Numbered from the stretch's first letter, positions 3,103-24,408 are shown. The stretch: DNA of 25,668 bases from an uncultured Fusobacteriaceae bacterium (GCA_964517235.1 CAZFBB010000023.1:1-25668), one strand, 5' to 3'. Made by a program: numbers and translations. The notes: a model not told the origin generated them from the letters alone.

Positions 3103-3918
3103 TTATTTTAGATACATTTTAATTTCTTTTTTTATATACTCAAGTTGACTAGTAGTATAGTTTATTGCATTTCTATAGTTATAACCTTTATAAAATTGAC
3201 CTTTTCTGTATTCTTCTACTATTATTATACCATCAATATCTGAAAAGATTAGTTTTTCTAATTTGTCACTATAATAATGAGCTGTGTAAAACTCATTAGT
3301 ACGATAGTTCATTATAGATATATTATATTCACCTATATTTGAATATTTTATTGCCACTTCTTTATTGTCAACTTCATTATAAATATATTCTTTTACTAAA
3401 CGATTTTTCATATATAATTTGGTTATATTTCCAATAGTTTTTTTTCCTTTTTTTACATTAACAAATTCAAAGTAATTTTGAAGAACATTGTATGAGTACT
3501 TATCAAAAAATTCTATGTGAGGATGTTTACTTATTAAAGTATATCTACCTTTTTTTTCCCTTCCAGAGTAAAAAATATTGTCTTTCCACTCTTCAGAAAA
3601 ATTTTTACCCTCTACTCCAATTATATCTCCATTATCATATAATATCTCCAACTTGCCCAATTTTTGATGGTACATGATACCTTTGCCATTAAATGAGTTA
3701 TTATTCACTTCTACTTCAAATATTTTTTGACCATCTTTTAAAAATGTAAAACTTGTAATAACTCCTAGTTCAACATTTGATTCCATATTATCCTTTGATA
3801 TAGTTCCTGAATAAAATCCTTTTTCATCTAATATGAGACTATGTTCAATTCTTAAATCTTCTAATTTAACAGCAAATATACTTAAATTTATTAAAATAAA
3901 TATTAATATTTTTTTCAT
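3103..3918 (-). CDS. Secreted hypothetical protein with N-terminal signal peptide. Tyr/Asn/Gly-rich repeats are reminiscent of MORN/YwqK-like beta repeats.
   Basis: 271 aa. It has an AAGGAGG RBS and an N-terminal hydrophobic signal sequence (MKKILIFILINLSIFAV). Repeated Y-x-x-G/K-G-K-K segments are present. I recognise no catalytic motif. Confidence 0.6.
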   Translation of the reverse strand: MKKILIFILINLSIFAVKLEDLRIEHSLILDEKGFYSGTISKDNMESNVELGVITSFTFLKDGQKIFEVEVNNNSFNGKGIMYHQKLGKLEILYDNGDIIGVEGKNFSEEWKDNIFYSGREKKGRYTLISKHPHIEFFDKYSYNVLQNYFEFVNVKKGKKTIGNITKLYMKNRLVKEYIYNEVDNKEVAIKYSNIGEYNISIMNYRTNEFYTAHYYSDKLEKLIFSDIDGIIIVEEYRKGQFYKGYNYRNAINYTTSQLEYIKKEIKMYLK

Positions 3919-5111: not shown

Positions 5112-5256
5112 AATGCCTCCTTTATAGATTCTATGATTACCTCTATTATATTCTACTAGTTTTTTTCAAAAAATCAAAAAGCTATTAATATTCTTTTAGA
5201 AATTTTTTAGATTCTCTCTCTTTTTTATATAAAAGAAAAAAAGACTTAAGAAAGTC

Positions 5257-5555
5257 CTTACAGGTCAAAGACAAATAATTAGTTTTTAAAAAAAACATCA
5301 TTACTTTTGTCTTGATACAAAAGTAATAGAATGTCTTGGGAGACATAACTGAATCTACGTCGGATAAATCTTCCTTATTCAGTAAAAATTAAATACTCAT
5401 ATAAAAAATTTCAAAACTCGCTCTTAAGGAGCTCAAACAGCTCACAATTATTAAGGTTCCTTTCGTTAACTTAATCTAAATTTCTTATATAAGTACATTT
5501 AAAATTAAAGACAAATAAAACTTCTTTTTAAGAAAATTTTATTTGTCTTCATTCT
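5257..5555. repeat. Copy 1 of a dispersed intergenic repeat family. Other copies are at 14384-14700 (same orientation), 23418-23540 (inverted) and a diverged copy at 8897-9115.
   Basis: Direct reading shows long near-identical blocks. One example: aaaaaacatcattacttttgtcttgatacaaaagtaatagaatgtcttgggagacataactgaatcta at 5290-5356 aligns with aaaaaacattactactttatcttttaatacaaaattaatacaagattttaggagatatacttgaatcta at 14386-14451. A second shared block is tcaaaactcgctcttaaggagctcaaacagctc...ttttatttgtc (5411-5547), matching 14541-14690. The element carries an 11-bp perfect inverted repeat ATTACTTTTGT-cttgat-ACAAAAGTAAT at 5300-5327. Confidence 0.7.
5510..5547 (-). terminator. AT-rich hairpin (GACAAATAAAA-loop-TTTTATTTGTC) 44 nt downstream of the permease stop. 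Candidate terminator, and part of the repeat element.
   Basis: Perfect 11-bp stem with a 16-nt loop. A T-rich stretch follows on the minus strand. The structure is conserved in repeat copy 2, although the sequence is not (AAATAAAAA...TTTTTATTT at about 14636-14668). Confidence 0.35.
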
Positions 5556-5590
5556 CAATGGATTTAAGAAAGTCTCTAAGTTCCTAGTAA

Positions 5591-6793
5591 TTATAAACCA
5601 AATAAATATAAACTAGTTCCCACAATTAGAGCGGGTATGAGATTATATATTGTAGCAAATAGAGCACTTTTTTTGTTAATAGCCAATAGTGGAAACAAAG
5701 CATCTCCATCATTACATATTGCATTTGCAGCTAAGGCTGAAAATGGAATAGTTCCTTGTAAATATAAAGTTGCTAGTATAATTTGAGGTCCACAACCGGG
5801 GATTAACCCTACCAAAACAGCTATTAGTACTGTTATATATCCACTTCCACTTATAAATTCTGTTAAAACAGCTTCACCACCCATAAAATAAATAAAAAGG
5901 TTATAAACTAACATTGCCATAAATACCCAACTGATTACAAAGGATGTTTCTTCTGCATTGTGTATAATAGTTTCTCTTAAAGAATTTATCTTACTTTCTG
6001 TTTCGGGATGATTGTCATCTGCCAATATTTTTTTACTAATTAAAGTATAAACTATACTAAAGATAGTTCCAAAAAATCCTATATAATTAAGATTTTTTAT
6101 GGGAATTATACTGTTATAGTCTATTTGTATAAGATTCATTATTCCCAGAGGTAAAGCAATTAAAGAAAATCCCCAAAATATTTTATATCCTAAAGAGTGT
6201 CTAAATTTATGAAGCATACCTTTTGTAGTTACACTATGATGAAGAGCCATATCTATAATATCTCCCTCTTCATGTCCAAAGTGTCTAAAATCAACATTAA
6301 TATTTTCATTATTAAGTTCAAATTCTGTAGGTTCATCTCTGAACATAGCGTGAGCTTCTTCTAATTCATATTTACTTTTTCCTTTTCCAAGTAAACTTTT
6401 TCCTATTTTAAAATAATCTATTATATACCCTGTAATAATAGCTACTATAAGAGAGATAAGAGATATAAAACCAAAGGTTTTAGGAGATTGAGTTAGCAGT
6501 ACAAAACTAGCATCACCCATAGTAGCAATAAGTGTAGCTACAACGGTACCAAAGGAAACTTTTCCTAATAAATAAAGTGGCATGACCATAATTGCCCCAC
6601 CACAACCTGGAGTCAAACCAAGTAAAGAACCAACTAATACTTGATATTTTTTATTTTTTTCTAATAAATCTATTAATTTCCCATCAAATTTATAATTGAT
6701 AAAACCAAATAATAATAATGTTACACCTACAAAAGCTCCAACATTTATAAAAGCATCTATTGATGAAGAGTATATTATATTAAATAAATACAT
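5591..6793 (-). CDS. Polytopic membrane permease with two internally homologous halves, each carrying a Gly-rich PGCG motif. Possible ArsP/DUF2899-type 10-TM putative metal or small-molecule exporter.
   Basis: Start re-anchored to MYLFNII (400 aa) on an AGGAGG RBS 6 nt upstream. The ORF-track N-terminal 18 codons lack an RBS. Duplicated motifs LLGLTPGCGGAIMVMPLYL and LVGLIPGCGPQIILATLYL each sit in a hydrophobic half, separated by a central cytoplasmic His/Glu-rich loop (HAMFRDEPTEFE...HFGHEEGD). Confidence 0.65.
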   Translation of the reverse strand: MYLFNIIYSSSIDAFINVGAFVGVTLLLFGFINYKFDGKLIDLLEKNKKYQVLVGSLLGLTPGCGGAIMVMPLYLLGKVSFGTVVATLIATMGDASFVLLTQSPKTFGFISLISLIVAIITGYIIDYFKIGKSLLGKGKSKYELEEAHAMFRDEPTEFELNNENINVDFRHFGHEEGDIIDMALHHSVTTKGMLHKFRHSLGYKIFWGFSLIALPLGIMNLIQIDYNSIIPIKNLNYIGFFGTIFSIVYTLISKKILADDNHPETESKINSLRETIIHNAEETSFVISWVFMAMLVYNLFIYFMGGEAVLTEFISGSGYITVLIAVLVGLIPGCGPQIILATLYLQGTIPFSALAANAICNDGDALFPLLAINKKSALFATIYNLIPALIVGTSLYLFGL

Positions 6794-7405
6794 ATTTTCC
6801 TCCTGAAATTTATTTTGATTATTATAATATATAATATTTATTTTCAAAAATTGTAATGATTACAATTTTGTACTATTTTAACATTAAAAGGATAAAAATG
6901 CAACGATTTTATGATTTTTCCTTGAAATATCAATATATATTTAAAATTTTAAAATTGTATTTTTTAAATTAATTTTATTTAAAAATAAAAAAGCTGAATA
7001 AATCTAAATTCAACTTTTCAACATATAATATATTTATTTAATAATTTTTTTATATGAATTTGTAGGTTTTTATTGCTATTGTAACAAATAGTTCTCTTAA
7101 TTTCTTTTGATTAAAATTTAAATAAAAATCTTATCATATGTAGCAAAAGCAGTTGTATTAGAGATTAATAAAGTATCTAGAAAACTTTTTAAAGATTTCA
7201 TTAGCTTTTTTTTTACAGTATATAAAAGATTTTTACTAGTTAAAAGATATAATAGCTTTTTAAACTTAAGAAGAAGATTTTATCTTGTATAATTCGATTA
7301 AAAAAAAGGACTTTGATATAGTATAATTCTATATTAACAAAGTCCCAAATAAAAATGTTATCACTACTTAACAAAGGTAATAACAAATTCTTTTTACTAT
7401 TTATA

Positions 7406-8332
7406 TTATAATGTACGAGTTAATAATTTTTTAAGGTCATTATGAGAATATTGACTAATTGAAGATTCCCTACCAACTTGTATTTCCTCTTCTATGCAAT
7501 GAAAATATTTTTCAATTTTGTTTATAGTTAATTTATAAGTAAGAGTATCATCTACAGTACTAATTATAGCAACGAGTTTTGTATCTGTAATATTATCTAT
7601 AATACATTTAGTTCCATTAGGGAATAGTTTTTTAAAATCATTACTAGTCCAATTTTTAAAATAATCTTTTTCATCCTGTGTAAAAACAACTGTATTTTTA
7701 TCATAATCTATAATAAAATTATAAACAAAGTTATTTATTTCTTTGAGATTAGTAGATGAAAAATCTTTAATCAAAATATCAGATTCACGTAACTTCATAG
7801 TATATTTAGTGTCTTCTTTGTCATAAGAAACATCTAATTCATTAGAGCCAAATTGTATAAAATCTTCGTTAATAAATCCATAAAGAGATATATTTTTTAA
7901 GTTACTTTTTAATTTAGCATTTAAATCCTTTACTAAATTAACATCTTTACTACTAAATTTATTTAGTAAATCATGAAGTGATTTATTGCTTCTTTTATCT
8001 TTCTCTTTTCCATTTAGTTTTTGAAAAACTGTGTATAAAGAATCTTTTTTTTCTGTCCTAAATTCTACTTTATCTCCAGCTTTGTAATCAAAGTTACCTT
8101 CAAAAAAAACAAACTTTACTTCCATTTTATGTTTGGTAATTTCAGGAGTTACTCGAGCCACTTCTTTAAGACTAAGAGTTACCCTATCCGACCATTTTCT
8201 GAAAATTTCTTGCTCCTCAAATGTAAAAATTACATCATTAACAGGCGTATTTTTAGCAGACGCCTTATTTTTAGAACAAGAAATAAAAGTTAATAGTCCC
8301 AAAGCAAACAAAATTAATAATACATTTTTCAT
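7406..8332 (-). CDS. Lipoprotein, hypothetical
   Basis: Start re-anchored to MKNVLLILFALGLLTFISC (308 aa) on an AGAGGGA RBS. The lipobox is L-T-F-I-S-C, with Cys as the first mature residue. The rest is hydrophilic and K/D/N-rich, with no recognisable enzyme motif. Confidence 0.65.
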   Translation of the reverse strand: MKNVLLILFALGLLTFISCSKNKASAKNTPVNDVIFTFEEQEIFRKWSDRVTLSLKEVARVTPEITKHKMEVKFVFFEGNFDYKAGDKVEFRTEKKDSLYTVFQKLNGKEKDKRSNKSLHDLLNKFSSKDVNLVKDLNAKLKSNLKNISLYGFINEDFIQFGSNELDVSYDKEDTKYTMKLRESDILIKDFSSTNLKEINNFVYNFIIDYDKNTVVFTQDEKDYFKNWTSNDFKKLFPNGTKCIIDNITDTKLVAIISTVDDTLTYKLTINKIEKYFHCIEEEIQVGRESSISQYSHNDLKKLLTRTL

Positions 8333-8981
8333 CCTATCCCTCTTATTAAAATAATACTCTGTCAAAATGTTTTTGGTAAAAAAACTAACAACAATACAAC
8401 CTTTCCAATATTATTATTAAAATATTCAAATGGTGTTTCTAACAATGGAATCATATTCTTAAAGCAAATTGAAGCGGATTTTCATTAAAAAAAGCGTCGA
8501 AAATGTTAATAGTAAAATTCATAGTAAATACAAATTGATAAGTTTTTATATTACATCTAAATATTTATTTTTATTATAATATAGATTAACTTACAATATT
8601 CATTAAAATGCTAACACATTATTCTTTCAAAATCAACTGATTTTTAAATTTTGTCGTATTATATCTATACATTTTGCTTTGTTATTTTATAAAATAAACA
8701 TGTTCAAAGACCTTATTTTACTGCAGAATGAAAAAAAGGAAATTAGAAAATTTTTTAGAAGGATTTTATCTTTGTTAAAAATTTTAGTCATAATTAATTA
8801 CCTTTAATTGATTACATCTACCATAGATTATAAAAGTTCCTTTAGAAAGAAACAATGTAAAAACTGTGCCTAAAAAGATTAATGCTACTTAACAGAAGAA
8901 AAGACAAATAATTTACTAATAAAAAAAGGGTTTTTTAAGACTATAGAGTTTGAAAAGGTAAGTCAAATAGGGGAGTTTGAG

Positions 8982-9134
8982 ATGTTAAAAAGAATGAGAG
9001 CAAAATTAGCGTGTAGAATGTCAGAATTAAAAAGAAGACACAAGATAGACGAAGCATATGCCAAATGTCTAAATAGAGTGTCTCATTTTATTGTGACAAA
9101 AGTAATAGAATGTAATTTAAAAAAATGGAGCTAA
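8982..9134 (+). CDS. Candidate small basic protein (50 aa, MLKRMRAKLACRMSELKRRHKIDEAYAKCLNRVSHFIVTKVIECNLKKWS), embedded in a diverged repeat-family copy
   Basis: It falls below the ORF-track length cutoff. A strong RBS GGGGAG lies 6 nt before the ATG. Local GC is higher than the flanks. The protein is Lys/Arg-rich with 3 Cys and 2 His. It lies in a 940-bp region otherwise free of ORFs. Confidence 0.3.
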   Translation: MLKRMRAKLACRMSELKRRHKIDEAYAKCLNRVSHFIVTKVIECNLKKWS

Positions 9135-9302
9135 ATAATAAATACCTTTTAAAATATTATTAATGATTCTGCTAAACATAATTAAAAATTCCAATGTAAA
9201 AATGTAAAACTAATTTAAATAGAAAATCATTTTGAAGTGGCATCTATTATCTTAATTTCCTAATTTAACTAACAACTTAGAATGTTCAAATTAATCAATT
9301 TT

Positions 9303-10754
9303 CTAAGCTCTCATTTTGTCTCTTTTATCTTGTGAATCAGGGTTATGTTCATCATCATGCCAACATGTTATTCCCCTAACTCCCTTTAAGCTTTCACTAG
9401 AAAAGGTAGGGTCGATACCTAGCTTTAATTGATATTTATAGTCTTTCAAAGCTATAATAGCATATTTACCAAGTGGTGCTAGTGCAATAAGATTAATTGT
9501 AGCCATTATTCCCATAAATAAGTCACCTAAAGTCCATACCATATCACTTTTTGCTAATCCTCCAAATAGTATCATAACAATTACGGCAAACTTAAAGATG
9601 TTAACAGAATTTTTCTTTTTACTTAAATATTTAACATTTATTTCTCCATAAAAATAGCATCCATATATTGTACTTAAAGAAAATAAAAATATACTAATTG
9701 CTATAAACACACTGCCGAAACTACCTATTTGGCTTTTTAATGCTTCCTGTACTAAAGAAACCCCTTTTAAATTAGGATCTAGATAAAGATTTCCCGATAA
9801 TAATATCATAAAAGCAGTAGCATTACATATTAATAAGGTATCTACAAAAACTCCTAAAGATTGCATCAATCCTTGTTTTACAGGATGTGAAACATCTGCT
9901 GCAGCTGCAGCATTTGGAGCACTTCCCATTCCTGCTTCATTACTAAATAAACCTCTTTGAATACCTATCATAACAATTTTTCCTAAAGTTGCCCCAGCAA
10001 AAGCTTTCAATCCAAAAGCACTAGACAAAATTAATTTTAATACTTGTGGAATTAAAGAAATATTTTTTGCTGATACAAATAGAGCTAATAATATATATGC
10101 TGTTGCCATTATTGGCACTAAAATTTCAGATATCTTTCCAATTTTACTTCTACTCCCCCTTATTCCTAAATAAGATAGGAATATAACTAAAGCTGTCCCA
10201 TATTTTACATCGATAGAAAAAGCATTGCTAAGTGCTTCTGTTATGGAATTAGAAAGGATTGCATGAACAATTAACCCTAAAAATCCTATTGCTGATACTG
10301 CAAATATTTTTGCAAGAACTTTATTTCCTAGTCCTTTTTCAATATAGTATGCAGGTCCTCCTACAAAACCATCTTTACTCTTTATTTTAAATATTTGCGC
10401 CAAAGTTGACTCTATAAAAGCTGAACTACTTCCTAGTATAGCAAAAGTCCACATCCAAAATACTGCCCCCGGTCCTCCTGCACCTATAGCTAATGCAATA
10501 CCTATTATATTTCCTGTTCCTACTCTACTTGCAGTACTTATACAAAATGCTTGGAATGATGATAAACCTTCTTTTGCTTTTTCTTTACTCCTTATCAATC
10601 TTATCATCTCTTTAAACATTCTAATTTGTACAAATCCACTTTTTACTGAAAAATAAATTCCTGCTAATATTAACATTCCAATTACAATATAAGTCCATAA
10701 GAAAATATTGACACTTGTCAATAAATTAAAGAACTTTATCTCTAACTCTACCAT
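9303..10754 (-). CDS. Alanine (or glycine)/sodium symporter, AGCS family
   Basis: 483 aa from MVELEIKFF.... It has a typical AGCS multi-TM layout and conserved stretches (FQAFCISTASRVGTGNIIG, GGPGAVFWMW, FSNEAGMGSAPNAAAAA). The start was chosen because an AAGGATGG RBS sits about 8 nt upstream of this ATG and because the predicted promoter lies inside the longer ORF-track extension. The ATG 3 codons upstream (MVAMVELE) remains possible. Confidence 0.88.
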   Translation of the reverse strand: MVELEIKFFNLLTSVNIFLWTYIVIGMLILAGIYFSVKSGFVQIRMFKEMIRLIRSKEKAKEGLSSFQAFCISTASRVGTGNIIGIALAIGAGGPGAVFWMWTFAILGSSSAFIESTLAQIFKIKSKDGFVGGPAYYIEKGLGNKVLAKIFAVSAIGFLGLIVHAILSNSITEALSNAFSIDVKYGTALVIFLSYLGIRGSRSKIGKISEILVPIMATAYILLALFVSAKNISLIPQVLKLILSSAFGLKAFAGATLGKIVMIGIQRGLFSNEAGMGSAPNAAAAADVSHPVKQGLMQSLGVFVDTLLICNATAFMILLSGNLYLDPNLKGVSLVQEALKSQIGSFGSVFIAISIFLFSLSTIYGCYFYGEINVKYLSKKKNSVNIFKFAVIVMILFGGLAKSDMVWTLGDLFMGIMATINLIALAPLGKYAIIALKDYKYQLKLGIDPTFSSESLKGVRGITCWHDDEHNPDSQDKRDKMRA

Positions 10755-10783
10755 AGCTACCATCCTTATTAATAATTTTAAAA

Positions 10784-10812
10784 ATTGTACCACATTATTC
10801 ATTCAAGTTCAA
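10784..10812 (-). promoter_or_regulatory. Sigma70-type promoter for the AGCS symporter: -35 TTGAAC, 17-nt spacer, extended -10 TGgTACAAT
   Basis: Minus strand reads catgTTGAACttgaatgaataatgTGgTACAATttttaaa. The -35 is a near-consensus hexamer, the -10 is an extended TG plus TACAAT, and spacing is 17 nt. This places the transcription start about 20 nt before the chosen start codon. Confidence 0.45.
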
Positions 10813-10916
10813 CATGAAATTTTTTGTGTATATGTCATGTTTTATTAATACAATTTTATCTTTTTATGTTATTTAAACATAATAATTTTTATTAAATTTA
10901 ATTAATTTAAATAAAA

Positions 10917-10940
10917 AAGAGCTCTTTGAGCTCGATTTTG
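10917..10940 (-). terminator. Rho-independent terminator (GAGCTC-AAA-GAGCTC followed by TTTTTT) downstream of the small lipoprotein gene
   Basis: Minus strand reads atcGAGCTCaaaGAGCTCttttttat. The stem is short but GC-containing and sits within A/T arms, 25 nt after the stop codon. It is potentially bidirectional. Confidence 0.5.
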
Positions 10941-10964
10941 TATTTGTATTTATTTTATTAAAAA

Positions 10965-11189
10965 CTACTTATCTTCACTTACAATTTCTTCTACTACTAC
11001 ATCTTCTGCAGTAACTTCTTCTGCACTTGTATCTTCTGAAACTGTAGTTTCTTCAGTTGCAATTGCTTCATTTGTTGTTGCTTCTACTTCTTGTTCTACA
11101 ACTACATTATCAACATTTTGATTTCCCTCTACATTTTTTCCACATGCTACAACTAATAATAAAGATAATGCTATTAATATTTTTTTCAT
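10965..11189 (-). CDS. Small acidic lipoprotein (74 aa) with a low-complexity Glu/Val/Thr-rich tail
   Basis: AAGGAG RBS with 8 nt spacer. Signal peptide plus lipobox (LLLVVAC). The mature part is strongly acidic (EEVEATTNEAIATEETTVSEDTSAEEVTAEDVVVEE). Confidence 0.5.
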   Translation of the reverse strand: MKKILIALSLLLVVACGKNVEGNQNVDNVVVEQEVEATTNEAIATEETTVSEDTSAEEVTAEDVVVEEIVSEDK

Positions 11190-11504
11190 TATTTATTTCT
11201 CCTTTTCTTCCTTAAGTTTCAAGAAGATTATATTATTAAACTGTGAAATTCTTGTGTATATTTTAATTTGATTTTAATTTTTCTTTAAATTTTATTTTTT
11301 TATTTTTAATGTAAATTTTTATATATAGATAAAATGCCTATAGGTATATTTTACATAATTGAGTTAAGGGATAAAAATGAAAATATTTTTTAACCATTTT
11401 TGTACAATTGTTTTTATATATGTTTAGTTTTAGTATATTTTTTTAAAAAAATGTTAATTTTCATGAACAGCTTTTAAAAAATAGTAGAAAAAAAAATTAG
11501 AAAG

Positions 11505-12885: not shown

Positions 12886-12917
12886 AGGGACTGTATTTCT
12901 ATAAACAGTCCCTTTTT
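12885..12917 (+). terminator. Rho-independent terminator AAGGGACTGT-loop-ACAGTCCCTT plus T5, lying between the convergent holA and phoH2 genes
   Basis: A 10-bp stem with a 10-nt loop, followed by ttttt. It overlaps the holA stop codon and lies 17 nt from the phoH2 stop, so it may serve both genes. Confidence 0.65.
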
Positions 12918-12933
12918 CAACTTATAATTATTT

Positions 12934-14250: not shown

Positions 14251-14383
14251 TATAATACCTCCTTGTACGTAGTTATTCTATACTACTATTATCCCATACT
14301 TTTTGTTACTCTTCAATTTTTTATTTATGTGAAGAATATTATAAATACTTTTTGTAGCATTCTTCATACTAAACTTTTGTAAA

Positions 14384-14700
14384 AGGTTTCTGAAAAAACA
14401 TTACTACTTTATCTTTTAATACAAAATTAATACAAGATTTTAGGAGATATACTTGAATCTATCTTAATAAATCCTTTCTTATTCGGCAAAACTCAAAAAT
14501 TTATATTAAAAAATAAGATTAAATAACCACTATAGTTATCAAAATTCAAAAGTCACTCTTGGGGAGCTCAAAGAGCTCCCAACTCTTAAGATTCCTTTTG
14601 TTAATAATCTAAATTCCTTATATAGGTACACCTAAATAAAAAGTTAATAAAGTTTTTATTTTTAGAAAATTTTATTTGTTTACAGTTTTAGTTTTACTTA
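14384..14700. repeat. Copy 2 of the dispersed intergenic repeat family, between the giant-ATPase gene and phoH2
   Basis: See copy 1. It shares both the 5' block and the 3' block, which includes the GGGAGCTC-AAA-GAGCTCCC hairpin. Confidence 0.7.
14561..14580 (-). terminator. Perfect 8-bp GC-rich hairpin GGGAGCTC-aaa-GAGCTCCC, 145 nt downstream of the giant-operon stop. Candidate terminator or RNA structural element.
   Basis: The strongest GC stem in the window. The T-tract after it on the minus strand is imperfect (cttttgaatttt). Confidence 0.35.
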
Positions 14701-14725
14701 AGCTCTTTAGCTTAGCTTCTTTTAA

Positions 14726-17700
14726 TTATTTTTTATTAAATAATTCACCTAATACCTTCAAATTGATTCCGATTTTGCTTAATTCTTCTACCACTTGCAA
14801 TACTCCCTTTTCATTTGAATTACTTTTATTTTCAAGGAATATTTTTTTAATTTCATTCCATCTAGCTAAAGAAGGATTATCTAATCTATCACTAATTTCT
14901 CTAAATTTTAATAAACTAGCTTCTGAATCACTTGCCAAAGTTTGAGCATCATTCTCATAAGCTTTTAGAATAAGATTTCTTATTTCATCCTCATTCATAA
15001 CAGGTACTATACGTTCAGCAATTTTATTCATATTTCTATATGAACCTTGTAGTTTAAATGGAGGTTCTACTCTATATTTGTCATTTTGACTAGCAGAAGT
15101 AATATACTCTATATTTACCCTTAGTATTTCATCTCTTACTTTTATCATATTAGATAAAAGTGATGAATATTCTTCTATGTCCCCTTCAGTATAATTTCCT
15201 TCTAATTCTATCTCTTCTCTATTTCCAACTTGAACAGCATTTATTAGTTTATATGTATCTTCTTGGTTTTTCATATATAATTTGTTCAAATATGGATTTG
15301 AAGTCATAGCATTTTCTAAATAAGATAGTTTAAAAGCTTCTTTATTTTCTCTAAGCATATCTCCAAGGTTGTAAACATCGGCTCTATTTGCTAGCATGTC
15401 TGGTATTTGAAACTTATCTCCACTTTCAGTATAAGGGTTTCCTGCCATTACTACTGCTACTTTCTTGCCCCTAAATTCATATGATTTACTCCTACCTTGC
15501 CATATACCTTCTATCTTACGTTGTCCATCGCATAGAGAAATAAATTTTTGTAAAAATTCAGGATTAGAATGTTGTATATCATCTAAATAGATAATTACAT
15601 TATTTCCCATTTCAAAGGCTAAATTCAATTTTTCAAGTTCCTCTTTGGCATTGGCATTTTTTGCTTCATTTGGGTCAAGACTAGTAATACCATGACCAAT
15701 AGTTGGGCAGTTAATCTTTATTAATAACATATTAAGTCTATTTGCAATATACTCCATAAGGGTAGTTTTACCATAACCGGGAGGTGAGATGAGTAGAAGC
15801 ATACCCATATTATCAGTTCTTTTATTTGCACCAGCAACACCTATTTGTTTGGCAAAATTATCTCCTATAAGAGGAAGATATACTTGATCTATAAGTTTAT
15901 TTCTAACAAAACTAGTTAAAACTTTTGGTTTTAACTCATTAAACTTAAGTTGGTATTTTCTATCTTCTATTAATTTATTCTTAAGTTTTTGGAAGTCATT
16001 AAATAATAATAAATTTTTACTTGTAAACTCTTCTAGTTTATAAAAAAAATCTACCAAATTAACTTCATATTTACCATTATCAATTAATTTATGTACTCCA
16101 ACAAGGTCATCTATCTTTATTTGACTTGATTCAGGTACTTTTCTTCTACTTTCCATATCTCCTATAAGATATAGGTTTTTCACTTCTTCAAAGTAACTAT
16201 TTTTATTTAGATTTTTATGACTTAAATAAGTATTGACCCATTCACTTATAAGTATATAGCTTCCATGTAAATCACCCCTTAATTTTTCTAGAGAGTGTTT
16301 AAAATCTTCCTTTGCATTTATACTTACTAAATAGTTGTTAAAATCTAGGTATAATTCTTCTCCTTCTTTACTAAGGATAAAGTTATTGTGTGAGCTAATT
16401 TCTAAAGCTAAATAGAGAGAAATTCTTTCTATATTAGCCCTAGGAAAAAAGTTATTATTTTCATAAAATTCTTCTACTCTATCTTTAAGATAAGGTATGA
16501 GCATATTTACAAAATTTCCACTTTTATGCCTGTTAATTATACTTAGTGTTTTAAGTCTAATTTCAATTTTACTTTTTTCTTCTTTATCTATACCAAAATT
16601 CCAAAGGTAATTAGCCATGGCTCTAACTTCAGGTTTATAAAGGGATAAACCAATTTCTTTGTTAGTTTTAACAATATTTTCAAGTATCTTTAAACTATCA
16701 ATATCATGAACTCCTTTGGTGTAGTATTCATTATAGTGACTTTCTACATATTTATCTACAAGCTTTTTAAGTCCTTCTCTACCTAAAGTATAAAGTTTAT
16801 CTAAAGAATTTTCATCTTCAAAAGATTTGAATATATTGTATGCTAAAAACTCTCCTCTATATACTTCCTGATTTTCACTTATAAGTTCTTGATTCCATAC
16901 ATATTCATATTTTGAAAGTAAACTTTCTTCTACTTTTTCAAAATAATCTGTACCACTTATATGATAATAAAATCTATCTCCTTTCCTTAAAAGAGTTAAT
17001 TCAGTTTTACCATCTGAAACTAAAAAGTTATTATTACCAAATTTAATAGTATTTCCATCAAGGAATAGTTCCTTTTTATCCTTTAATTGTTTAATACTAT
17101 TTTCTTTAAGACTTTTAAGTTTACTCTCAATCTCACTAGCTTTTGTAGCATCTCCTAATTTAATTAGGTTTTCTATAATATCTCTTATCTTTTCTACCAT
17201 TAAATCTGTAGAAAAAATTTCATTTATAGCTTTTAAGTCATCAATAGTCTTTAATCTATTACTTAAACCTTTAAAGACTCTTTCACTTGCATCAAATAAT
17301 GAATTAATTTTTTTATTCTTTTTTTCAATCAAACCTTGTTTTTTTTGAGTAAAGGCACTAACTATTTCTTCCCTTTTTTCTGTTAATTGTGGAATAAATT
17401 CTTCGAAATCACTAAATTTACTTTCTAATTCATCTATTTGAACTATTATTTTAGTCAAATAAGAATCTACTTTTTCTATAGTATCTGAAAGATTTAGATA
17501 ATTTGATATAGACTGAGTAATTAAATTTAATTTTGAGTAAAAGTCACTCTTTCTTTCTTTAGAATCCAAATTTTCAACTATATTATTCAATTTTGATTTA
17601 ATACCATTAAGTGTTGCAAATAGTGATGAAATTTTATCTATAATTTCAGAAGATTTAGTTGTGTCTTCTATCTTTAAACTATTAACAATAGTAATAAGTA

Positions 17701-19609
17701 ATTCTAGTTCTTCACTTATTCCTATTATTTTTTCTTCCAATTCTCTTCCATCAATTACTTTAGTAATATTTTCCAAGGTACCTTTACACTCTTCAACACT
17801 AGCAATATAAGGACCAAGACTTTCATCTAATAATAAGAAGTTAATGCAATCATCACTGATTTTTTCATTAGCTTCCCTAATGGCATTTGCCATTTTTTCA
17901 ACTTTTTCCAAATTCACAAATTGTAAATCTTTTAATCCTGTTATTTCTCCCCTTAATTTCCTTAATTTCCTTAGGTATAAAACAAAATCATTAATTTTTT
18001 CAAAAGTGGTGTATTTAATAGTTTTTAAGATGTTTTCACAAGCCTCTTCAACTTTTATACTTTCCTTTTTAGTTTCTTCCCTTATAAAATTTACTTTTTC
18101 ATATTCTTTTATAGCAATGGTAGCAGCCTCTTTTATTTTTAAAAGAGATTCTTTAAGACCAAAAGCTTCTTTTTTGTCAAGCCAAAAATAGTTGTTTATT
18201 ATAGTTTCAGTATCATTAACTATATCAACATAAAGTCCATAGTAACTATCTTCTCTTCTTATTAACTTGTAAAGAGTAGTAATATCAGCAATAGCTCTTA
18301 CAATGCTCTTATTACCAAGATTATATAAAAAAGAACCTTTAACTTCTTCATCTTCTACTTCTAAAGAAGCAGAAAAACTGGTTTCCCATATTTTTAAAGT
18401 ATGGTTACGTTTAGGTTCTAATTCTGCTTTGAAAACAGCCATGTGTCCATTGTCAAAGTGCGCATAACCACTGGCTATTATAGGTGGATTTGCATTTTGA
18501 TTAATTATATTATATGAATAAATATAATATTCTCCACTTTTGTGGTTATAAAAGATATACTGATAATCTTCTCCGTTTTGAGAAACTTTTTTTTCATTGA
18601 ATACTACATTTTCAAAATCAACATCAAATTTTGAAAAACCTCCACCACTTTGTCTAACTAGACCGTTTGGAACTAGGATACCATGGTTTTCAGGTAGAAG
18701 TATACATGCTTTTCCAATACTATCTATTCTATGAACTTCTTTAGTTTTTTGATTAAAAGTAAAGTATCTATAGTTTCTTTCTTGATATGGTTTAATTCTA
18801 AGAAGAATTATATTTCCTGTAATTGAGTAAGATATATCTCCATCATCAAGACTTTGATCTAAGTTTTCAACTGGTTCAGAATAGATTCCCTTTCCACTAT
18901 TTGTATTATTTTCTATTTTGAGAGTTAAATCTCCTCCAATAGTTTCAACAAATAATTTATCTTCTATACTAATGTGAGGATGTTCACCATTAACATGATC
19001 CTCTCTACTAGTTCTTTTCCATTCTATTTCTTGTTGCAAACCATAATTAACTTCATGTGATGATCTATTACCAGCATATTCTAATTTATCATCATTAACA
19101 AACCACTTAAAGGCTTTGATATTGGTAAAATCATTTCCATTTTGAAAAACCATATATAAATATCCATTTTTTTCAAAAAATTTAGTAAAAAAACTTTCTT
19201 TATAATATTTATATAAATCTTCAAATTCACTAAGAAATTTATCGTCTAATAGTAGGGAATAATCGGATTTGCTAAAACTTTCTCCATTGTATTCATAAAT
19301 ACTAAAAACGTCATTAATTTTTATTTTGCTTTTTAGTCCCATGTGAACATTGTAACCTAATATAACCTTGTTTCCTATGGGTACGATATCTCTTGGGATA
19401 CAGTTATTTTCAGTTAAGATAGCTTCTGTTTTTAGAAGTTTAGCAACTTTTTCCCCAAAAACATTAACTCTTTCTCTATTAAGTTTATCCAAACTACTTT
19501 TTAATTCACTAGATGTATCAAGTAATCTATTACGTATAACATTGTAGGCAGCAAAGGTCTCTTGACCTTTGCTACTTTTGCTTTCCTTTTTTTCTATATT
19601 ATCTTCCAT
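14726..19609 (-). CDS. Giant (1627 aa) multidomain protein with a beta-rich N-terminal region, long central coiled coil and a MoxR/McrB-type (AAA_5-like) ATPase module near the C-terminus
   Basis: AAGGGGG RBS 8 nt upstream of the ATG, which lies 11 bp after the flotillin stop. The AAA+ module has Walker A LLLISPPGYGKTT (about nt 15770-15800), Walker B NVIIYLDDIQH and a sensor region VAVVMAGNPYTESGDKFQIPDMLANRADVY. That sensor matches the NP...G...lP.al.nR pattern of AAA_5/MoxR/McrB ATPases. Residues about 480-860 are K/E/L/I-rich heptad-like coiled coil. The first about 450 aa are Tyr/Asn/Gly-rich, suggesting a beta fold. Confidence 0.8.
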   Translation of the reverse strand: MEDNIEKKESKSSKGQETFAAYNVIRNRLLDTSSELKSSLDKLNRERVNVFGEKVAKLLKTEAILTENNCIPRDIVPIGNKVILGYNVHMGLKSKIKINDVFSIYEYNGESFSKSDYSLLLDDKFLSEFEDLYKYYKESFFTKFFEKNGYLYMVFQNGNDFTNIKAFKWFVNDDKLEYAGNRSSHEVNYGLQQEIEWKRTSREDHVNGEHPHISIEDKLFVETIGGDLTLKIENNTNSGKGIYSEPVENLDQSLDDGDISYSITGNIILLRIKPYQERNYRYFTFNQKTKEVHRIDSIGKACILLPENHGILVPNGLVRQSGGGFSKFDVDFENVVFNEKKVSQNGEDYQYIFYNHKSGEYYIYSYNIINQNANPPIIASGYAHFDNGHMAVFKAELEPKRNHTLKIWETSFSASLEVEDEEVKGSFLYNLGNKSIVRAIADITTLYKLIRREDSYYGLYVDIVNDTETIINNYFWLDKKEAFGLKESLLKIKEAATIAIKEYEKVNFIREETKKESIKVEEACENILKTIKYTTFEKINDFVLYLRKLRKLRGEITGLKDLQFVNLEKVEKMANAIREANEKISDDCINFLLLDESLGPYIASVEECKGTLENITKVIDGRELEEKIIGISEELELLITIVNSLKIEDTTKSSEIIDKISSLFATLNGIKSKLNNIVENLDSKERKSDFYSKLNLITQSISNYLNLSDTIEKVDSYLTKIIVQIDELESKFSDFEEFIPQLTEKREEIVSAFTQKKQGLIEKKNKKINSLFDASERVFKGLSNRLKTIDDLKAINEIFSTDLMVEKIRDIIENLIKLGDATKASEIESKLKSLKENSIKQLKDKKELFLDGNTIKFGNNNFLVSDGKTELTLLRKGDRFYYHISGTDYFEKVEESLLSKYEYVWNQELISENQEVYRGEFLAYNIFKSFEDENSLDKLYTLGREGLKKLVDKYVESHYNEYYTKGVHDIDSLKILENIVKTNKEIGLSLYKPEVRAMANYLWNFGIDKEEKSKIEIRLKTLSIINRHKSGNFVNMLIPYLKDRVEEFYENNNFFPRANIERISLYLALEISSHNNFILSKEGEELYLDFNNYLVSINAKEDFKHSLEKLRGDLHGSYILISEWVNTYLSHKNLNKNSYFEEVKNLYLIGDMESRRKVPESSQIKIDDLVGVHKLIDNGKYEVNLVDFFYKLEEFTSKNLLLFNDFQKLKNKLIEDRKYQLKFNELKPKVLTSFVRNKLIDQVYLPLIGDNFAKQIGVAGANKRTDNMGMLLLISPPGYGKTTLMEYIANRLNMLLIKINCPTIGHGITSLDPNEAKNANAKEELEKLNLAFEMGNNVIIYLDDIQHSNPEFLQKFISLCDGQRKIEGIWQGRSKSYEFRGKKVAVVMAGNPYTESGDKFQIPDMLANRADVYNLGDMLRENKEAFKLSYLENAMTSNPYLNKLYMKNQEDTYKLINAVQVGNREEIELEGNYTEGDIEEYSSLLSNMIKVRDEILRVNIEYITSASQNDKYRVEPPFKLQGSYRNMNKIAERIVPVMNEDEIRNLILKAYENDAQTLASDSEASLLKFREISDRLDNPSLARWNEIKKIFLENKSNSNEKGVLQVVEELSKIGINLKVLGELFNKK

Positions 19610-19620
19610 TTATTTCCCCC

Positions 19621-21747
19621 TTAGTCCAATAATTCATGTACTGGGATATTTTCCATTCCTAATGACTTTATTTTTTCTATAGTTTTTAATATAAAGGGTT
19701 TCTTTTCATTACTGCTATTATCCATTAGGTTTAGTAGTGCAGAAGAGATAGTTAAATTTTTGATATCTTCTGTATTTATGCCAAATAAATCAACAAAATT
19801 TCTTAATTCTTCCTTAAATTTTCTTTGGTCTCCATTAAAAAATGTTTCTTTTACATCTTTTAAAACATGTGATTTATCAATTAAAGCATCTGCTTGTTTA
19901 CCAACAGTAATAGTTTTAATTAATTTATCAAAGAAGATACTGTCTCCACCAACAATGTCTATATTTGAGTTTTTAAGTCCTTCACTAACAACTTGAGCTT
20001 GAGCAAGGGCAATATCTTTTTGTATAGAGATTTGAGCAAGTTCAATTTCCTTCTCTTTATTAAGTCTAAGTTTAAATTCTTCATGTTCTCTACCAATAGC
20101 ATCAAATTCCTTCATAGCTTGAGCTTTTTCATTGATACCTTCAGCTTCGGCTACTGCTTTTTCTTTTATTACTTTAGCTTCAGCTACACCTTCTGCTTCT
20201 ACTCCCTTAGCAGTAGCAAGTTTTTCAGCTTCAATACCTTTTGCAATTGCAGTTGCTTCTTTTTCTATAGCTTCAGCTTTTGCATCAGCTTCAAGTTTAG
20301 TTACTTTTGCTTTTGCAATACCTTCAACTTCAATAGCTTCAGCTCTAGCTTTTATAACTCTAGCTTCTGATACTCCCTCAACAGCAGCTTCTTCTGCTCT
20401 TGCATCAGCAATAACTTTTGTTGCTTCAGCTTGCTTAAATGAAGTTTTTAAATTTGTTTCAGCAATAACTATATCCTTTTCAGCTTTTATCTCAGCTGAT
20501 TTTTTGTCAGCTTCAGCTTCTTTAATTCTATCAATTACTTTTACTTCTGCATCAGCTTCAGCAAGAGTTATACTAACTTTTTTCTTTCTATCAGCTTCAG
20601 CAAACTCTTTAGTATCTTTTATTTTTTCCTCTTCGAGTACAACTGATTTTTGTACCATTACTCTTTCTTTTATTACTTCTTGTATATTTTTATTTTCTTC
20701 CTCTACTTTTTTATTTTTTTCAATTTGTGCAAGAGTAACTATCTTTTCTCTTTCAGTCTTTTCCAATTCTCTTTGTTTTTCAACTCTTTCTGATTCGATA
20801 GCTTCAGTTGCTTCTTTTGCTTTTTGAGCAACAATAACAGATCTTTGTTTGTTTTCTTCTAAAATTGAAAGTTCTTCATCAGTTTTAATTCTTGCTTGTT
20901 CATACTTAAATCTTTCTTCTTCAGCAACAGTTTTAATTTGAGAATCTTCTCTGCTTTGTATAGTTTTAATTTCTCTTTCTTGTTTTGCTTCTGCTTCTGC
21001 TTGTTGTTTTTCAAGTTCTAGAATTGCTTCTCTAGCACTTACATCTTGTTCTTTAATAGTTTTTTCTTTGTCTCTTTGGATTTGATTTGCTTTAACCATT
21101 TCAGAGGCAGTTTTTTCTGTGATTTTTTTGATACCTTCAGAATCTAATACATTATCTGGATTTAAGAATTTAAGCTCTGTTTGTTCTAGATAATCAATGG
21201 CTGCATCTTCCAGTTTATATCCATTTAAGTCTTCACCAATAACTTGTAGTATCTCCTCTTTAAATTGAACTCTTTCAGTATAAAGTTGGACAAAATCAAA
21301 CTTTTTACCAGCTGTTTTAAGTGCTTCAGAAAATTTCGCATCAAAAAACTCCATAAGAGTGCTAGAATCAGATGCTTTTTGAGTTCCTAAAGCTTTTGCA
21401 ACTTTTAAAACATCTTCTTGATTGTCATTTACCTTTACGAAAAAGGCTACTCTAATATCAGCTCTTAAATTATCCTTACAAATTAGTCCATCCTTACCTT
21501 CTCTAGCTATTTCAACTCTCTTAACTGAAATATTCATTATTTCCCAGTTATGAAGTATAGGGACTACCCACATACCTGTAAATGATACTTTTGAACCTCC
21601 AAGCCCATTTCTCACTATAGCTTTTCCTTGTGTAACTTTTTTGTAAAATAATTTTAAAACTAGTGGAAAACCAATAAATAGTAGTCCAAAAACTCCCCAA
21701 GCTACTGTAGCTAATAATTTAAAAAGGTTTGTATCAAAATTTTCCAT
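19621..21747 (-). CDS. Flotillin-family SPFH/band-7 protein (YqiK-like) with an N-terminal membrane anchor and a long Ala/Glu/Lys-rich coiled coil
   Basis: 708 aa. AGGAGGA RBS. An N-terminal transmembrane helix (LFKLLATVAWGVFGLLFIGFPLVL) is followed by an SPFH core (AIVRNGLGG.KVSF, GLICKDNLRADIRVAFFVKV). The EA-repeat region (AEAKAEAIEKEATAIAKGIEAEKLATAKGVEAEGVAEAKVIKEKAVAEAEG) is typical of flotillin/YqiK. Confidence 0.85.
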   Translation of the reverse strand: MENFDTNLFKLLATVAWGVFGLLFIGFPLVLKLFYKKVTQGKAIVRNGLGGSKVSFTGMWVVPILHNWEIMNISVKRVEIAREGKDGLICKDNLRADIRVAFFVKVNDNQEDVLKVAKALGTQKASDSSTLMEFFDAKFSEALKTAGKKFDFVQLYTERVQFKEEILQVIGEDLNGYKLEDAAIDYLEQTELKFLNPDNVLDSEGIKKITEKTASEMVKANQIQRDKEKTIKEQDVSAREAILELEKQQAEAEAKQEREIKTIQSREDSQIKTVAEEERFKYEQARIKTDEELSILEENKQRSVIVAQKAKEATEAIESERVEKQRELEKTEREKIVTLAQIEKNKKVEEENKNIQEVIKERVMVQKSVVLEEEKIKDTKEFAEADRKKKVSITLAEADAEVKVIDRIKEAEADKKSAEIKAEKDIVIAETNLKTSFKQAEATKVIADARAEEAAVEGVSEARVIKARAEAIEVEGIAKAKVTKLEADAKAEAIEKEATAIAKGIEAEKLATAKGVEAEGVAEAKVIKEKAVAEAEGINEKAQAMKEFDAIGREHEEFKLRLNKEKEIELAQISIQKDIALAQAQVVSEGLKNSNIDIVGGDSIFFDKLIKTITVGKQADALIDKSHVLKDVKETFFNGDQRKFKEELRNFVDLFGINTEDIKNLTISSALLNLMDNSSNEKKPFILKTIEKIKSLGMENIPVHELLD

Positions 21748-21759
21748 TCAAATATCCTC

Positions 21760-22233
21760 CTAATTTTTTTTGTATAAATAATCTATAGCAATGTCTTCTA
21801 CATTAACTATATTTTTATTGATATTGTTCAATCTAACTAATATTTCTTTTTTATAATTTTTACTTCTACTCTCTAAACTTTCATAATTGTATATTTTACT
21901 AACTTCAATCAAAATACTTTCCAAATCTATAATAAGATTTCCATTGGTGTTTTTTTCGTTTATATAATTAATCCCTTGGTCTATAGTCACTTTACTATAG
22001 ACTTTTCCTTTAACCTCAAAGGGGATATTATCTTTGCTTTGTAAATTTTCAGTAAATTTAAATGGAATAACTTTGATAGTACTATCTATAATAGTTATTT
22101 TTTGAAAGATAATATTGTAAATGACAAGGGTTTCTGTAATTTTTTCTCCCAAAAGTCCTTTTACTATAATTAATTCATTTAATTTTGCTTTTTTTACTCT
22201 AAAAGTTAAAAGAATAAAAAGTATAGTTCCCAT
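21760..22233 (-). CDS. Small membrane protein with a single transmembrane helix (157 aa) and a beta-rich body. Possible truncated SPFH-like or NfeD-like fold.
   Basis: It lies 12 bp upstream of the flotillin gene. It has an N-terminal hydrophobic helix. The segment STIKVIPFKFTENLQSKDNIPFEVKGKVYSKV loosely resembles the TKDN...V.YRV strand region of SPFH domains. The RBS spacing is poor (GGGAGG is 19 nt from the ATG), so the start and even the coding status are less secure. Confidence 0.45.
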   Translation of the reverse strand: MGTILFILLTFRVKKAKLNELIIVKGLLGEKITETLVIYNIIFQKITIIDSTIKVIPFKFTENLQSKDNIPFEVKGKVYSKVTIDQGINYINEKNTNGNLIIDLESILIEVSKIYNYESLESRSKNYKKEILVRLNNINKNIVNVEDIAIDYLYKKN

Positions 22234-22247
22234 TAAAATATAAATAA

Positions 22248-22913
22248 TTATTCCTCCCTTTCATAAAGTTTTATAACTAAATAAACATCTCTTTCTTCTA
22301 CTTCTTCTATTATCTGTACTATGTCCTTTTTAAAAAGATGTTTTTCATTTGAAATTACATTTAAAAGTATTTCACTTCCATTTCCCCTTTTAATCAGGGC
22401 TTGTCCAAGTCTATTGGGTTCCAAACTAGTTTGCATAATAGCTCTTTTGCCAATAGGATTAAATGTGCAATCATCTTCTAATCCTTGAAAAAATGGTAAT
22501 AAGGGTTTAGTTAACCCCTTTGTCACTATTAAACTAGCATTCATATTAATTAATAGGAGAATGAAAGACATAAAAGACTTTGGACTAAAAGGAAAATAAT
22601 ATGTAAGCATAGTAAGTATCCATAAGATACAAATATAAATGGTAATATAAACCATAAATGGAATTGTATCCATATGAGAAAATTCCAAAAATTTTCTAAA
22701 AAATCCTGAATTATCTATTTCAACTTGCTCTGAATTATTAAAATCAAAATCTCCATCTATATCAAAATCTCTATCTATATCAAAATTAAAATCTAACATA
22801 TCTTGTGAAATAAATCCTAATATTACAAATATCCAATATAAAATTACAAAAGTTAAAAGTATTGTAACAATTGTATTTATACCAGTTATAGAAAATAATA
22901 AATATTCTTTCAT
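22248..22913 (-). CDS. YqiJ/DUF1449-like inner-membrane protein with an NfeD-type C-terminal beta-barrel. It is the first gene of the flotillin operon.
   Basis: 221 aa. AAAGGAG RBS. It has N-terminal transmembrane helices and an Asp-rich acidic loop (DFNFDIDRDFDIDGDFDFNN), then further hydrophobic segments. The C-terminus (GQALIKRGNGSEILLNVISNE...IVQIIEEVEERDVYLVIKL) fits an NfeD-like OB/beta-barrel pattern. The architecture and its position upstream of a flotillin gene match E. coli yqiJ-yqiK. Confidence 0.55.
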   Translation of the reverse strand: MKEYLLFSITGINTIVTILLTFVILYWIFVILGFISQDMLDFNFDIDRDFDIDGDFDFNNSEQVEIDNSGFFRKFLEFSHMDTIPFMVYITIYICILWILTMLTYYFPFSPKSFMSFILLLINMNASLIVTKGLTKPLLPFFQGLEDDCTFNPIGKRAIMQTSLEPNRLGQALIKRGNGSEILLNVISNEKHLFKKDIVQIIEEVEERDVYLVIKLYEREE

Positions 22914-22989: not shown

Positions 22990-23417
22990 TGTATAAATTT
23001 TTCAACTATAATTTTTGTAATAATTTAAATAAAAATGTTGAAAATAGTTAAATTTTCACTTTAGATTATTGAAATAAAGAAAAATTATTACTGTAACTGC
23101 TCTCTTACTAAACCTGTATAAGGGGGTTTGAAAAAAGTTTTAATATGTATCAACCTAGTGATTTCTATGATTGTTAAGGCTAAATCCCACCCTATTTATA
23201 TCTAATATTTTAAGAAATATTTACCTCTACTTTTTATGTTGATAATTGCTCAAATCTCTATCTATTTCTTTAAACCAAGTTAACTCTTTTTTAAAGTGTT
23301 GATTATCTTCCTTCTTTTAAAATTCAATTTTTTCATTAAGAAGACGATTATATGCAAATCTGACATAAGCAAAAGTCTTATGGATTAAAGTTAGTAGTTC
23401 TTGATTTTTAATAAATA

Positions 23418-23540
23418 AAGAAGGATTTATTCAAGGTAGATTCAGTTATGTTACTAAAACCTTGTATAATTTTTCTATCAAGATAAAAACAATGATATTT
23501 TTTAAAAGCTATCTGTTTGTCTTCAACCTGATAATGATTT
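23418..23540. repeat. Copy 3 (inverted orientation, shorter) of the dispersed intergenic repeat family, upstream of the flotillin operon
   Basis: gaaggatttattcaaggtagattcagttatgttact...tatcaagataaaaacaatgatattttttaaaagctatctgtttgtcttcaacctg matches the reverse complement of 5260-5380 (ctgaataaggaagatttatccgacgtagattcagttatgtctc...tatcaagacaaaagtaatgatgttttttttaaaaactaattatttgtctttgacctg). Confidence 0.6.
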
Positions 23541-23735
23541 TATTTTTTTAATTTAGGAAATTATTATATTTTATTATATAGTAAAATTAATTAAATAATT
23601 TTAGTAGAAGATAAGTTTTTTATGTGGAACTGTAGTTTAAAAAGGTTTTTAACTATTAATTATTTTCTATATTAAGTGTCATATATAATATAGTTTATTT
23701 GAAAGATAGCTCGACCTAAATGGTCAAGCTATATA

Positions 23736-24023
23736 CTAAGGAGTGCCAGTAGTTTCTAATTTAAGAGTATAAAATTCATCTAATAAATTTTCCATAAATT
23801 CAACTAACCTATGATATAGAGAATATTTTTTTTCATCTTTCATAATAATATCTTTAGCTTCTACTAACTCTTCTTCTAAAGCTAATATAAAATGATTTTC
23901 AAAGTATTCTATCTCATGTTTGTTATATAGATTAGGTCTAGAATGCTCTTTAATATTTTCTTCAAATAACAATAGTTTATACAAATCTTCTTCTATTTTT
24001 TCAAAGAATAGTTCATGTTTCAT
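23736..24023 (-). CDS. Hypothetical acidic protein (95 aa)
   Basis: Start re-anchored to MKHELFFEKIEE on a GGGAGG RBS 9 nt upstream. It is an isolated gene flanked by more than 300 bp of non-coding DNA on each side. I recognise no domain. Confidence 0.45.
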   Translation of the reverse strand: MKHELFFEKIEEDLYKLLLFEENIKEHSRPNLYNKHEIEYFENHFILALEEELVEAKDIIMKDEKKYSLYHRLVEFMENLLDEFYTLKLETTGTP

Positions 24024-24408
24024 ATTGGTACCTCCCAACAACTTTAGCACCCCTCTCACTTTGATTATATTTCCCAAAAGAGCTAAAAACAATCTTTATA
24101 TTAAATAAAATTTAAAGATAGATTAATATGTTAATTTAATCTTATGCGCAAAATAATCAATCGTAGTAATTTTAAAGATAAATTTTATATTTTTATCTTT
24201 GTTTTAAAAAGATAGTTATATTTTATATAAAAAAATTTTGTTTAGTGATAGAAAAAAATTAAAAAAAGAGTTTGATATAGATTTTGCATTTTTTATTTTG
24301 CTTATTGTAATAATACCAATATTATCAGAGATAAAATATATGTTGTATTGACTTATTTTGTTAGATTTGCTAGTATTAACTGATAATATTTTACTTAAGG
24401 GGGTTATT

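Follow-up and report, generated by a model that had tools for sequence, protein, structure and literature searches.

The window analysed here, a stretch of 25,668 nt that represents one whole contig of an uncultured Fusobacteriaceae bacterium, has a G+C content of 26% and carries most of its genes on the minus strand. The encoded proteins are closest to those of uncultured Fusobacteriaceae; for PhoH, the best match is 97% identical, compared with ~72% for 'Fusobacteriaceae bacterium' and 68% for Hypnocyclicus. A conserved minus-strand cluster (14726-22913), found in the same order in relatives (L006), encodes a 1627-aa DUF3686/DUF7902/AAA ATPase, a 708-aa coiled-coil protein that is rich in Ala, Glu and Lys and contains internal repeats at 20123-20519, a 157-aa protein and a YqiJ-like membrane protein. 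Left of phoH (12886-12933), the gene order breaks, and the relatives continue with genes for a HAD hydrolase and an ankyrin protein. A 118-aa ORF (23736-24092), without a Pfam match, has a 55%-identical homologue that adjoins phoH in the distant relatives L011 and L019-L021; judging from this comparison, the two genes probably were neighbours before the DUF3686 cluster or a rearrangement split them.

Two other parts of the contig differ from its closest relatives. Between the genes for ArsP_2 and the alanine symporter, where the relatives have a gap of ~270 nt, the window contains a 2.35-kb stretch (6994-9343) that is missing in them; this stretch comprises a 319-aa lipoprotein-like ORF (7406-8365; no Pfam match), the remnant of an insertion sequence (IS), and fragments resembling the symporter gene and its upstream region (7145-7230 corresponding to 9810-9895, and 8603-8690 to 10781-10872). 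Farther on, at 10859-10965 and 11301-11385, a DUF2914 gene and a gene for a 639-aa dCache/HAMP/HD-GYP signalling protein, both present in relatives (L022), are missing; what remains after the two losses is an 'intergenic' region of 720 nt, which can still be aligned with the region of a 69-aa ORF in the relatives.

Three intergenic regions of the window harbor copies of a non-coding repeat, denoted c1, c2 and c3 (Table 1). In a blastn search of the window with c1, this copy aligns with c2 (5281-5594 vs 14384-14729, E 1e-39, 68% identity over 353 columns) and with c3 (5248-5397 vs 23544-23396, E 2.6e-26, 77% identity over 152 columns). An nhmmer profile of the copies detects, at E<1, exactly three family sites in the window, namely, 5254-5594 (+), 14362-14729 (+) and 23391-23537 (-), and a 22-base core pattern matches 3 of the 3 copies and none of 100 shuffled sequences. 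These searches bear out the preliminary description of a repeat family with three copies in both orientations, which is real but in part had to be corrected: the identity of 80–90% that was estimated by eye is reached in short blocks only. All copies lie, as described, in intergenic DNA, with stop codons in all six frames of every copy, and the full-length ones span 314-335 nt; a tblastn search with the IS transposase reveals no significant protein-level similarity in any of them. The neighbours of c1 are the ArsP_2 gene and a gene for a 232-aa membrane protein, and those of c2 are the genes for the DUF3686 ATPase and PhoH; these flanking genes are indeed unrelated, and the rejection of a riboswitch or a gene-specific leader was right. 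The motif AAGACAAATAA, which had been noticed near both ends of c1, occurs there at 5268 (+) and 5508 (+) and, additionally, at 5539 (-).

Table 1. Copies of the repeat, features of the best-preserved copy and its surroundings, and the insertion sequence remnant in the window.
Feature	Position	Strand	Description	Source
Copy c1	5252-5565	+	best-preserved full-length copy, 314 nt, non-coding	blastn, nhmmer
Copy c2	about 14365-14699	+	full length, more decayed than c1	blastn, nhmmer
Copy c3	23391-23541	-	inverted, truncated	blastn, nhmmer
Left terminal inverted repeat of c1	5252-5278	+	AAGTCCTTACAGGTCAAAGACAAATAA	
Right terminal inverted repeat of c1	5539-5565	-	AAATCCATTGAGAATGAAGACAAATAA on the minus strand	
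Candidate target-site duplication AAGA, left copy	5248-5251		within the direct repeat GACTTAAGAAAGTC, 5243-5256	
Candidate target-site duplication AAGA, right copy	5566-5569		within the direct repeat GATTTAAGAAAGTC, 5561-5574	
Split ArsP_2 terminator, downstream half	5235-5247	-	arm AAGTCT, then T7	
Split ArsP_2 terminator, upstream half	5570-5575	-	arm AGACTT	
Hairpin A	5300-5327	+	ATTACTTTTGT / ACAAAAGTAAT, perfect 11-bp stem in c1	
GGAGCTC hairpin	5428-5443	+		pairing by hand from the sequence
Hairpin D	5507-5549	+	long AT-rich near-palindrome overlapping the right inverted repeat	
Internally deleted IS1182-family insertion sequence	8712-9245	+	remnant, 3.2 kb from c1	

Besides the copies in the window, the count of the family includes one in a relative, located at the end of contig L007 (nhmmer 10-232, E about 1e-53). 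The copies differ in the parts they retain. Only the left ~150 nt, with the left end, hairpin A and the TGAATCTA...CTTATT block, are present in c3; a 31-nt segment that is found in c2 and L007 has been lost from c1; and the middle block is missing in L007. Because the copies have internal deletions in common and the further losses differ (31 nt in c1, the right half in c3, the middle block in L007), the shortening of the element preceded its spread. At the truncated end of c3 (23363-23390), the palindrome CATAAG-CAAAAGT-CTTATG is followed by ATGGATTAAAG, which resembles the element end CAATGGATTTAAG but has the wrong orientation for c3; possibly, a further, unrecognised fragment has its edge at this site.

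Both ends and a flanking duplication can be read in c1 only, the left end of c2 being decayed and the copies c3 and L007 incomplete. The terminal inverted repeats of c1 are imperfect, with 19 of the 27 positions complementary, and the 14-nt direct repeat around this copy matches at 13 of the 14 positions; with the limits of both set after inspection, chance support is ~1–2% each (~2% of random 30-mer pairs at the same spacing score equally, as do 1.2% of random site pairs for the direct repeat). The direct repeat can be divided into the 4-nt AAGA and element ends that resemble the arms of the target stem. When c1 is removed together with one copy of the repeat, whichever repeat length is assumed, the two halves of the split terminator join into AGACTT-TCTT-AAGTCT-TTTTTTT, 15 nt past the ArsP_2 stop codon on the transcribed strand; the predicted empty site reads AGACTTAAGAAAGTCT. 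Because its removal restores a canonical intrinsic terminator, c1 is best placed as an insertion in the loop of the ArsP_2 terminator. The hairpin GGACTT-TCTT-AAGTC, followed by T7, is re-formed at the left junction by the flank together with the duplication and the element end, and a weaker one is re-formed at the right junction. The candidate promoter of the next gene (5177-5150) lies outside c1 and is conserved in relatives. No flanking duplication was found by eye at c2. The left boundary of c1 is also that of c3 (AAATCATTATCAGGTTGAAGAC in the latter), at an unrelated locus and in the opposite orientation; more generally, no relationship is seen among the flanking sequences of c1, c2, c3 and L007.

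Comparison with relatives shows where the repeat is present and where it is absent. The spacing between the gene for ArsP_2 (89% identical) and the next gene is 188 nt in the five contigs of the closest relatives vs 479 nt here, and no trace of c1 is detectable at the ArsP_2 locus of these contigs, which have a terminator of their own there; the intergenic DNA of the relatives cannot be aligned with the flanks of c1, so that these are not clean empty sites. At the site of c2 (14323-14718, compared with 8790-9928 of L006), the relatives carry a gene for a pfkB-family kinase, with the DUF3686 gene on one side and phoH on the other; in the window, c2 abuts, with its right end, the hairpin AAGCT-CTTT-AGCTT (14700-14713), just past the DUF3686 stop codon. 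The surroundings of c3 (23099-23735) do not align with L006. The sister contigs L007 and L006 have a terminator hairpin in common, and the point at which their sequences part is exactly the foot of this hairpin, where L006 lacks a copy. Because the L007 copy and c2 have opposite orientations relative to phoH, they represent separate insertions. No match to c1 was found by blastn in plasmid and phage collections, and searches of representative genomes, JGI metagenomes and viral contigs with two conserved core patterns yielded either no matches or chance ones without further similarity to the copies. By these sequence searches, the family appears to be confined to one uncultured Fusobacteriaceae lineage.

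The IS remnant in the window belongs to the IS1182 family. Its ends match the inverted repeat of the intact element (8717-8731 on the left, 9227-9241 on the right), and it encodes transposase residues 1-19 (8768-8824), joined directly to residues 416-515 (8829-9125) in a frame interrupted by stops (tblastn E 1.4e-44). Intact elements of 1762 nt, bounded by the perfect 18-bp inverted repeat GATTCCACTGCAGAATGA, are present in contigs L027 (3-1764) and L028 (2055-3816), which come from the same samples as the closest relatives of the window, and are 80% identical to the remnant at the nucleotide level. In L028, the flanks of the element (2042-2054 and 3817-3828) are inverted repeats of each other, AAATTAAATTCTA / AAATATAGATTT, a configuration that fits insertion of the IS into a palindrome. 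For the more distant IS relatives L030 and L031, only an inverted-repeat consensus was obtained. The region 8900-9113, previously taken for a diverged fourth copy of the repeat, is not detected by the family profile and lies inside this remnant; its short matches to the repeat (23/28, and 24/28 with 18 exact) fall within a 50-aa ORF (8982-9134). This ORF has a good ribosome-binding site and shares 72% identity with residues 469-515 of the 550-aa protein P0242, which contains the domains DDE_Tnp_1_6 (PF13751), DUF772 (PF05598) and DDE_Tnp_1; a search of 1.8 billion protein representatives returned only the ORF itself and P0242. The ORF was also considered to be a genuine small gene belonging to a longer element; this reading was rejected, and the ORF is the tail of a transposase pseudogene.

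The similarity between c1 and the IS involves both the end and the left part of the repeat. By hand count, the outer 17 nt of the right end of c1 match the IS repeat at 14 of 18 positions when two gaps of 1 nt are allowed, and agree with the right end of the L029 element at 15 of 20; the right end of the L007 copy, TTCATTTATCTACAGC, resembles that of the L029 element, CTTCATTCTACAGCGGAATC, again by hand comparison. In its left part, c1 runs colinear with the 3' quarter of the transposase gene: positions 5258-5294 are similar to the codons of LTE(E/Q)KTNN... (28/40 in comparison with the remnant), the left arm of hairpin A resembles the FVLIRK codons, and the right arm together with AGAATGT (5317-5334) is identical to the remnant over 18 of 18 positions (9096-9113; TKVIEC, residues ~506-511). 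Hairpin A is located where two segments of the transposase gene were apparently joined by a deletion. The left inverted repeat of c1 resembles transposase codons ~434-449 better than it does the left end of the IS. In a long-gap alignment, c1 matches the remnant with a z of 3.5, and none of 200 shuffles scores as well. Homology of the repeat body to the 3' region of the IS was rejected for c2, c3 and L007, which have no significant similarity to the IS in either orientation, and likewise for the IS tails alone.

Among the elements found, none is a parent with exactly the ends of c1, and the left ends match the IS weakly; the copies encode no transposase, the DDE_Tnp_1_6 and DUF772 domains being limited to the full-length IS and the remnant. 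The similarity of c1 to the remnant may stem from sequence exchange between the two, and the left end of c1 could be a cryptic internal end or a product of deletion. With the link to be seen mainly on c1, the repeat probably derives from an IS of the IS1182 family, and confidence in this specific origin is somewhat below that in the reading of the repeat as a mobile element.

The repeats are likely to be decaying, non-autonomous MITE-like mobile elements of ~310-340 nt, a previously undescribed family of an ordinary, known kind. Among the options raised initially, the MITE-like one draws support from the ends of c1, its flanking duplication, the restored terminator and the absence from relatives, and from the common left end of c1 and c3 at unrelated loci and the presence, in the same lineage, of an IS1182-family element with a similar end. 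Under this interpretation, internal deletion of an IS1182-family IS would have produced a small element that kept the right end and has a left end built of sequence matching the 3' quarter of the transposase gene. The DDE transposase of a full-length element, acting in trans, would bind the two imperfect inverted ends and place the element in, or beside, short DNA hairpins, here the terminators just past stop codons, with a duplication of a few bases (in c1, putatively the four loop bases AAGA). Given the resemblance between the ends of c1 and the target stem, terminator-like hairpins would re-form at both junctions, and hairpin D would be a further possible terminator of the element's own. 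Because the junction hairpins and hairpin D offer possible terminators, insertions after a gene are probably tolerated. The copies, which carry no gene, would now be diverging and losing parts. The option of a terminator or insulator cassette, also raised initially, holds insofar as hairpin D and the junction hairpins are terminator-like, but only as a side effect of insertion. A more far-reaching version of the MITE-like interpretation appears doubtful, namely, that this is a hairpin-seeking MITE whose ends mimic terminator stems, so that insertion rebuilds terminators at both junctions, expression remains intact, and copies could be kept as 3'-UTR or terminator modules. If true, this would be a natural case of structure-directed transposition by an IS1182-type enzyme on a non-autonomous substrate.

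It is unlikely that transposition played no part and that the copies go back to the duplication or recombination of an intergenic terminator cassette or of decayed IS fragments, with the ends and the direct repeat of c1 being coincidental. The contig is much rearranged compared with its relatives, with the gene replacement at c2, the 2.35-kb insertion, the two deletions and the gene-order break, the modest statistics of the inverted and direct repeats were obtained after inspection, and chance palindromes are numerous in such hairpin-rich, AT-rich DNA, all of which speaks for this alternative. However, a perfect terminator immediately after a stop codon, as uncovered by the removal of c1, is not expected from random duplication, and the mutually unrelated flanks of the four copies, the left boundary common to c1 and c3 and the occurrence of copies in both orientations also argue for insertion of a discrete element.

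The hairpins of the repeat bear on another reading that we regard as quite improbable, namely, that the copies are sRNA genes or 3'-UTR-derived regulatory RNAs in which the hairpins are functional RNA structures. Compared with shuffled sequences, c1 is strongly structured on both strands, whether folded as DNA or RNA (z -5.3 and -5.8); the minus-strand folds of c1, c2 and L007 are more stable than the plus-strand ones, a few pair changes leave hairpin A intact, and a terminator-like hairpin with T7 follows c1 on the minus strand. Strong folding of c1 is, however, expected because this copy is a chain of palindromes. The internal perfect inverted repeats and the GGAGCTC hairpin described previously are present in c1, but they are perfect in this copy only and are degraded in c2 and c3, so that the proposed conservation of the hairpins across copies does not hold. 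Specifically, the stem of hairpin A is degraded in c2; the GGAGCTC hairpin, paired by hand, has 5 bp in c1, 8 bp in c2 and ~4 bp in L007, with no compensatory pattern; and hairpin D, which on the minus strand is followed by TTTAATTTT and is thus terminator-like, has a left arm that is degraded in c2 and replaced in L007. The RNAalifold consensus structure of the four copies consists of only 6 common pairs (-0.39 kcal/mol), that is, there is essentially no consensus structure. In Rfam, no match was found at gathering scores, nor at E<=0.5 over the whole window, and a local search at E<=10 gave nothing meaningful, its weak matches to the plastid psbA 3'-UTR and to miRNAs being far below gathering and attributable to the AT-rich hairpin D. 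The truncation of copies or loss of whole blocks, the promoter-like sites that are no more common than in shuffled sequences, with no convincing promoter common to the copies, and the absence of a copy at the same site in closely related genomes all argue against the sRNA option of the preliminary description.

The reading of the copies as hairpin elements of the IS200/IS605 type (PATEs), which a Y1 transposase moves in single-stranded form, is very improbable and was rejected: c1 does have hairpins near both ends, and the tetranucleotides TTAC (left junction) and TCAA (near the right end) recall the cleavage sites of IS608, but there is no sequence relationship between hairpins A and D, whereas in the IS200/IS605 family the hairpins of the two ends resemble each other, c1 has inverted ends and a flanking duplication that this family lacks, TTAC is found at c1 only and not at c2 or c3, and the related autonomous element is a DDE IS rather than a Y1 one.

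For annotation, the MITE-like elements account for part of the unusually long intergenic regions and of the contig breaks in assemblies of this lineage, and they should not be labelled as sRNAs or riboswitches. An IS1182-type element and its probable short derivative occur here naturally in terminator hairpins, and the filled and restorable site of c1 could help to probe the structure-dependent targeting proposed for this poorly studied IS family. Beyond annotation and targeting, the repeat is an ordinary mobile-element remnant.

Among bacterial repeats, the closest parallels are MITEs that originate from IS by internal deletion, such as RUP, derived from IS630-Spn1, in pneumococcus and the Correia elements in Neisseria. 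Like these, the repeat is small, non-coding and intergenic, occurs in several copies in both orientations and folds strongly upon itself; it has imperfect inverted ends and a putative short flanking duplication, is present or absent among close relatives, and its ends, on the right more than on the left, are similar to those of an autonomous IS found in that lineage. In contrast to typical MITEs, only four copies are known, the family seems to be restricted to a single lineage, the inverted repeats are poor (19/27), the left end resembles an internal segment of the transposase gene rather than the left end of the parent, and no exactly matching parent was found.

With regard to the IS1182 family, IS1272 of staphylococci targets inverted-repeat or stem-loop sites, and among the models proposed for it are some in which either just the loop or the entire stem-loop is duplicated; this element has been reported to replace the target stem-loop without any duplication (PMC5678879). 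In an earlier review, palindromes were noted as targets of some members of the family (via PMC5678879). The related full-length element described here encodes a transposase with the DDE_Tnp_1_6 and DUF772 domains, as in the IS1182 family; c1 is located in a terminator loop, c2 and L007 abut hairpins, and the IS of L028 lies between inverted flanks, in a pattern similar to that of IS1182 and IS1272. By analogy, c1 fits the loop duplication modelled for IS1272. Unlike IS1272 when it replaces a stem-loop, c1 retains both half-stems and apparently duplicates the loop, and unlike members of the IS1182 family, the repeat has no transposase; its assignment to the family is based on the similarity of the ends and the short colinear matches, in c1 only.

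The pneumococcal BOX and the enterobacterial ERIC/IRU repeats reach tens to hundreds of copies, and BOX consists of defined module types. The repeat described here is similar to these in that blocks are present or absent depending on the copy, the copies are highly self-complementary, and they are located after genes. It differs in that deletions from a single ancestral unit account better for the variation in blocks, and in that it shows a link to a DDE insertion sequence.
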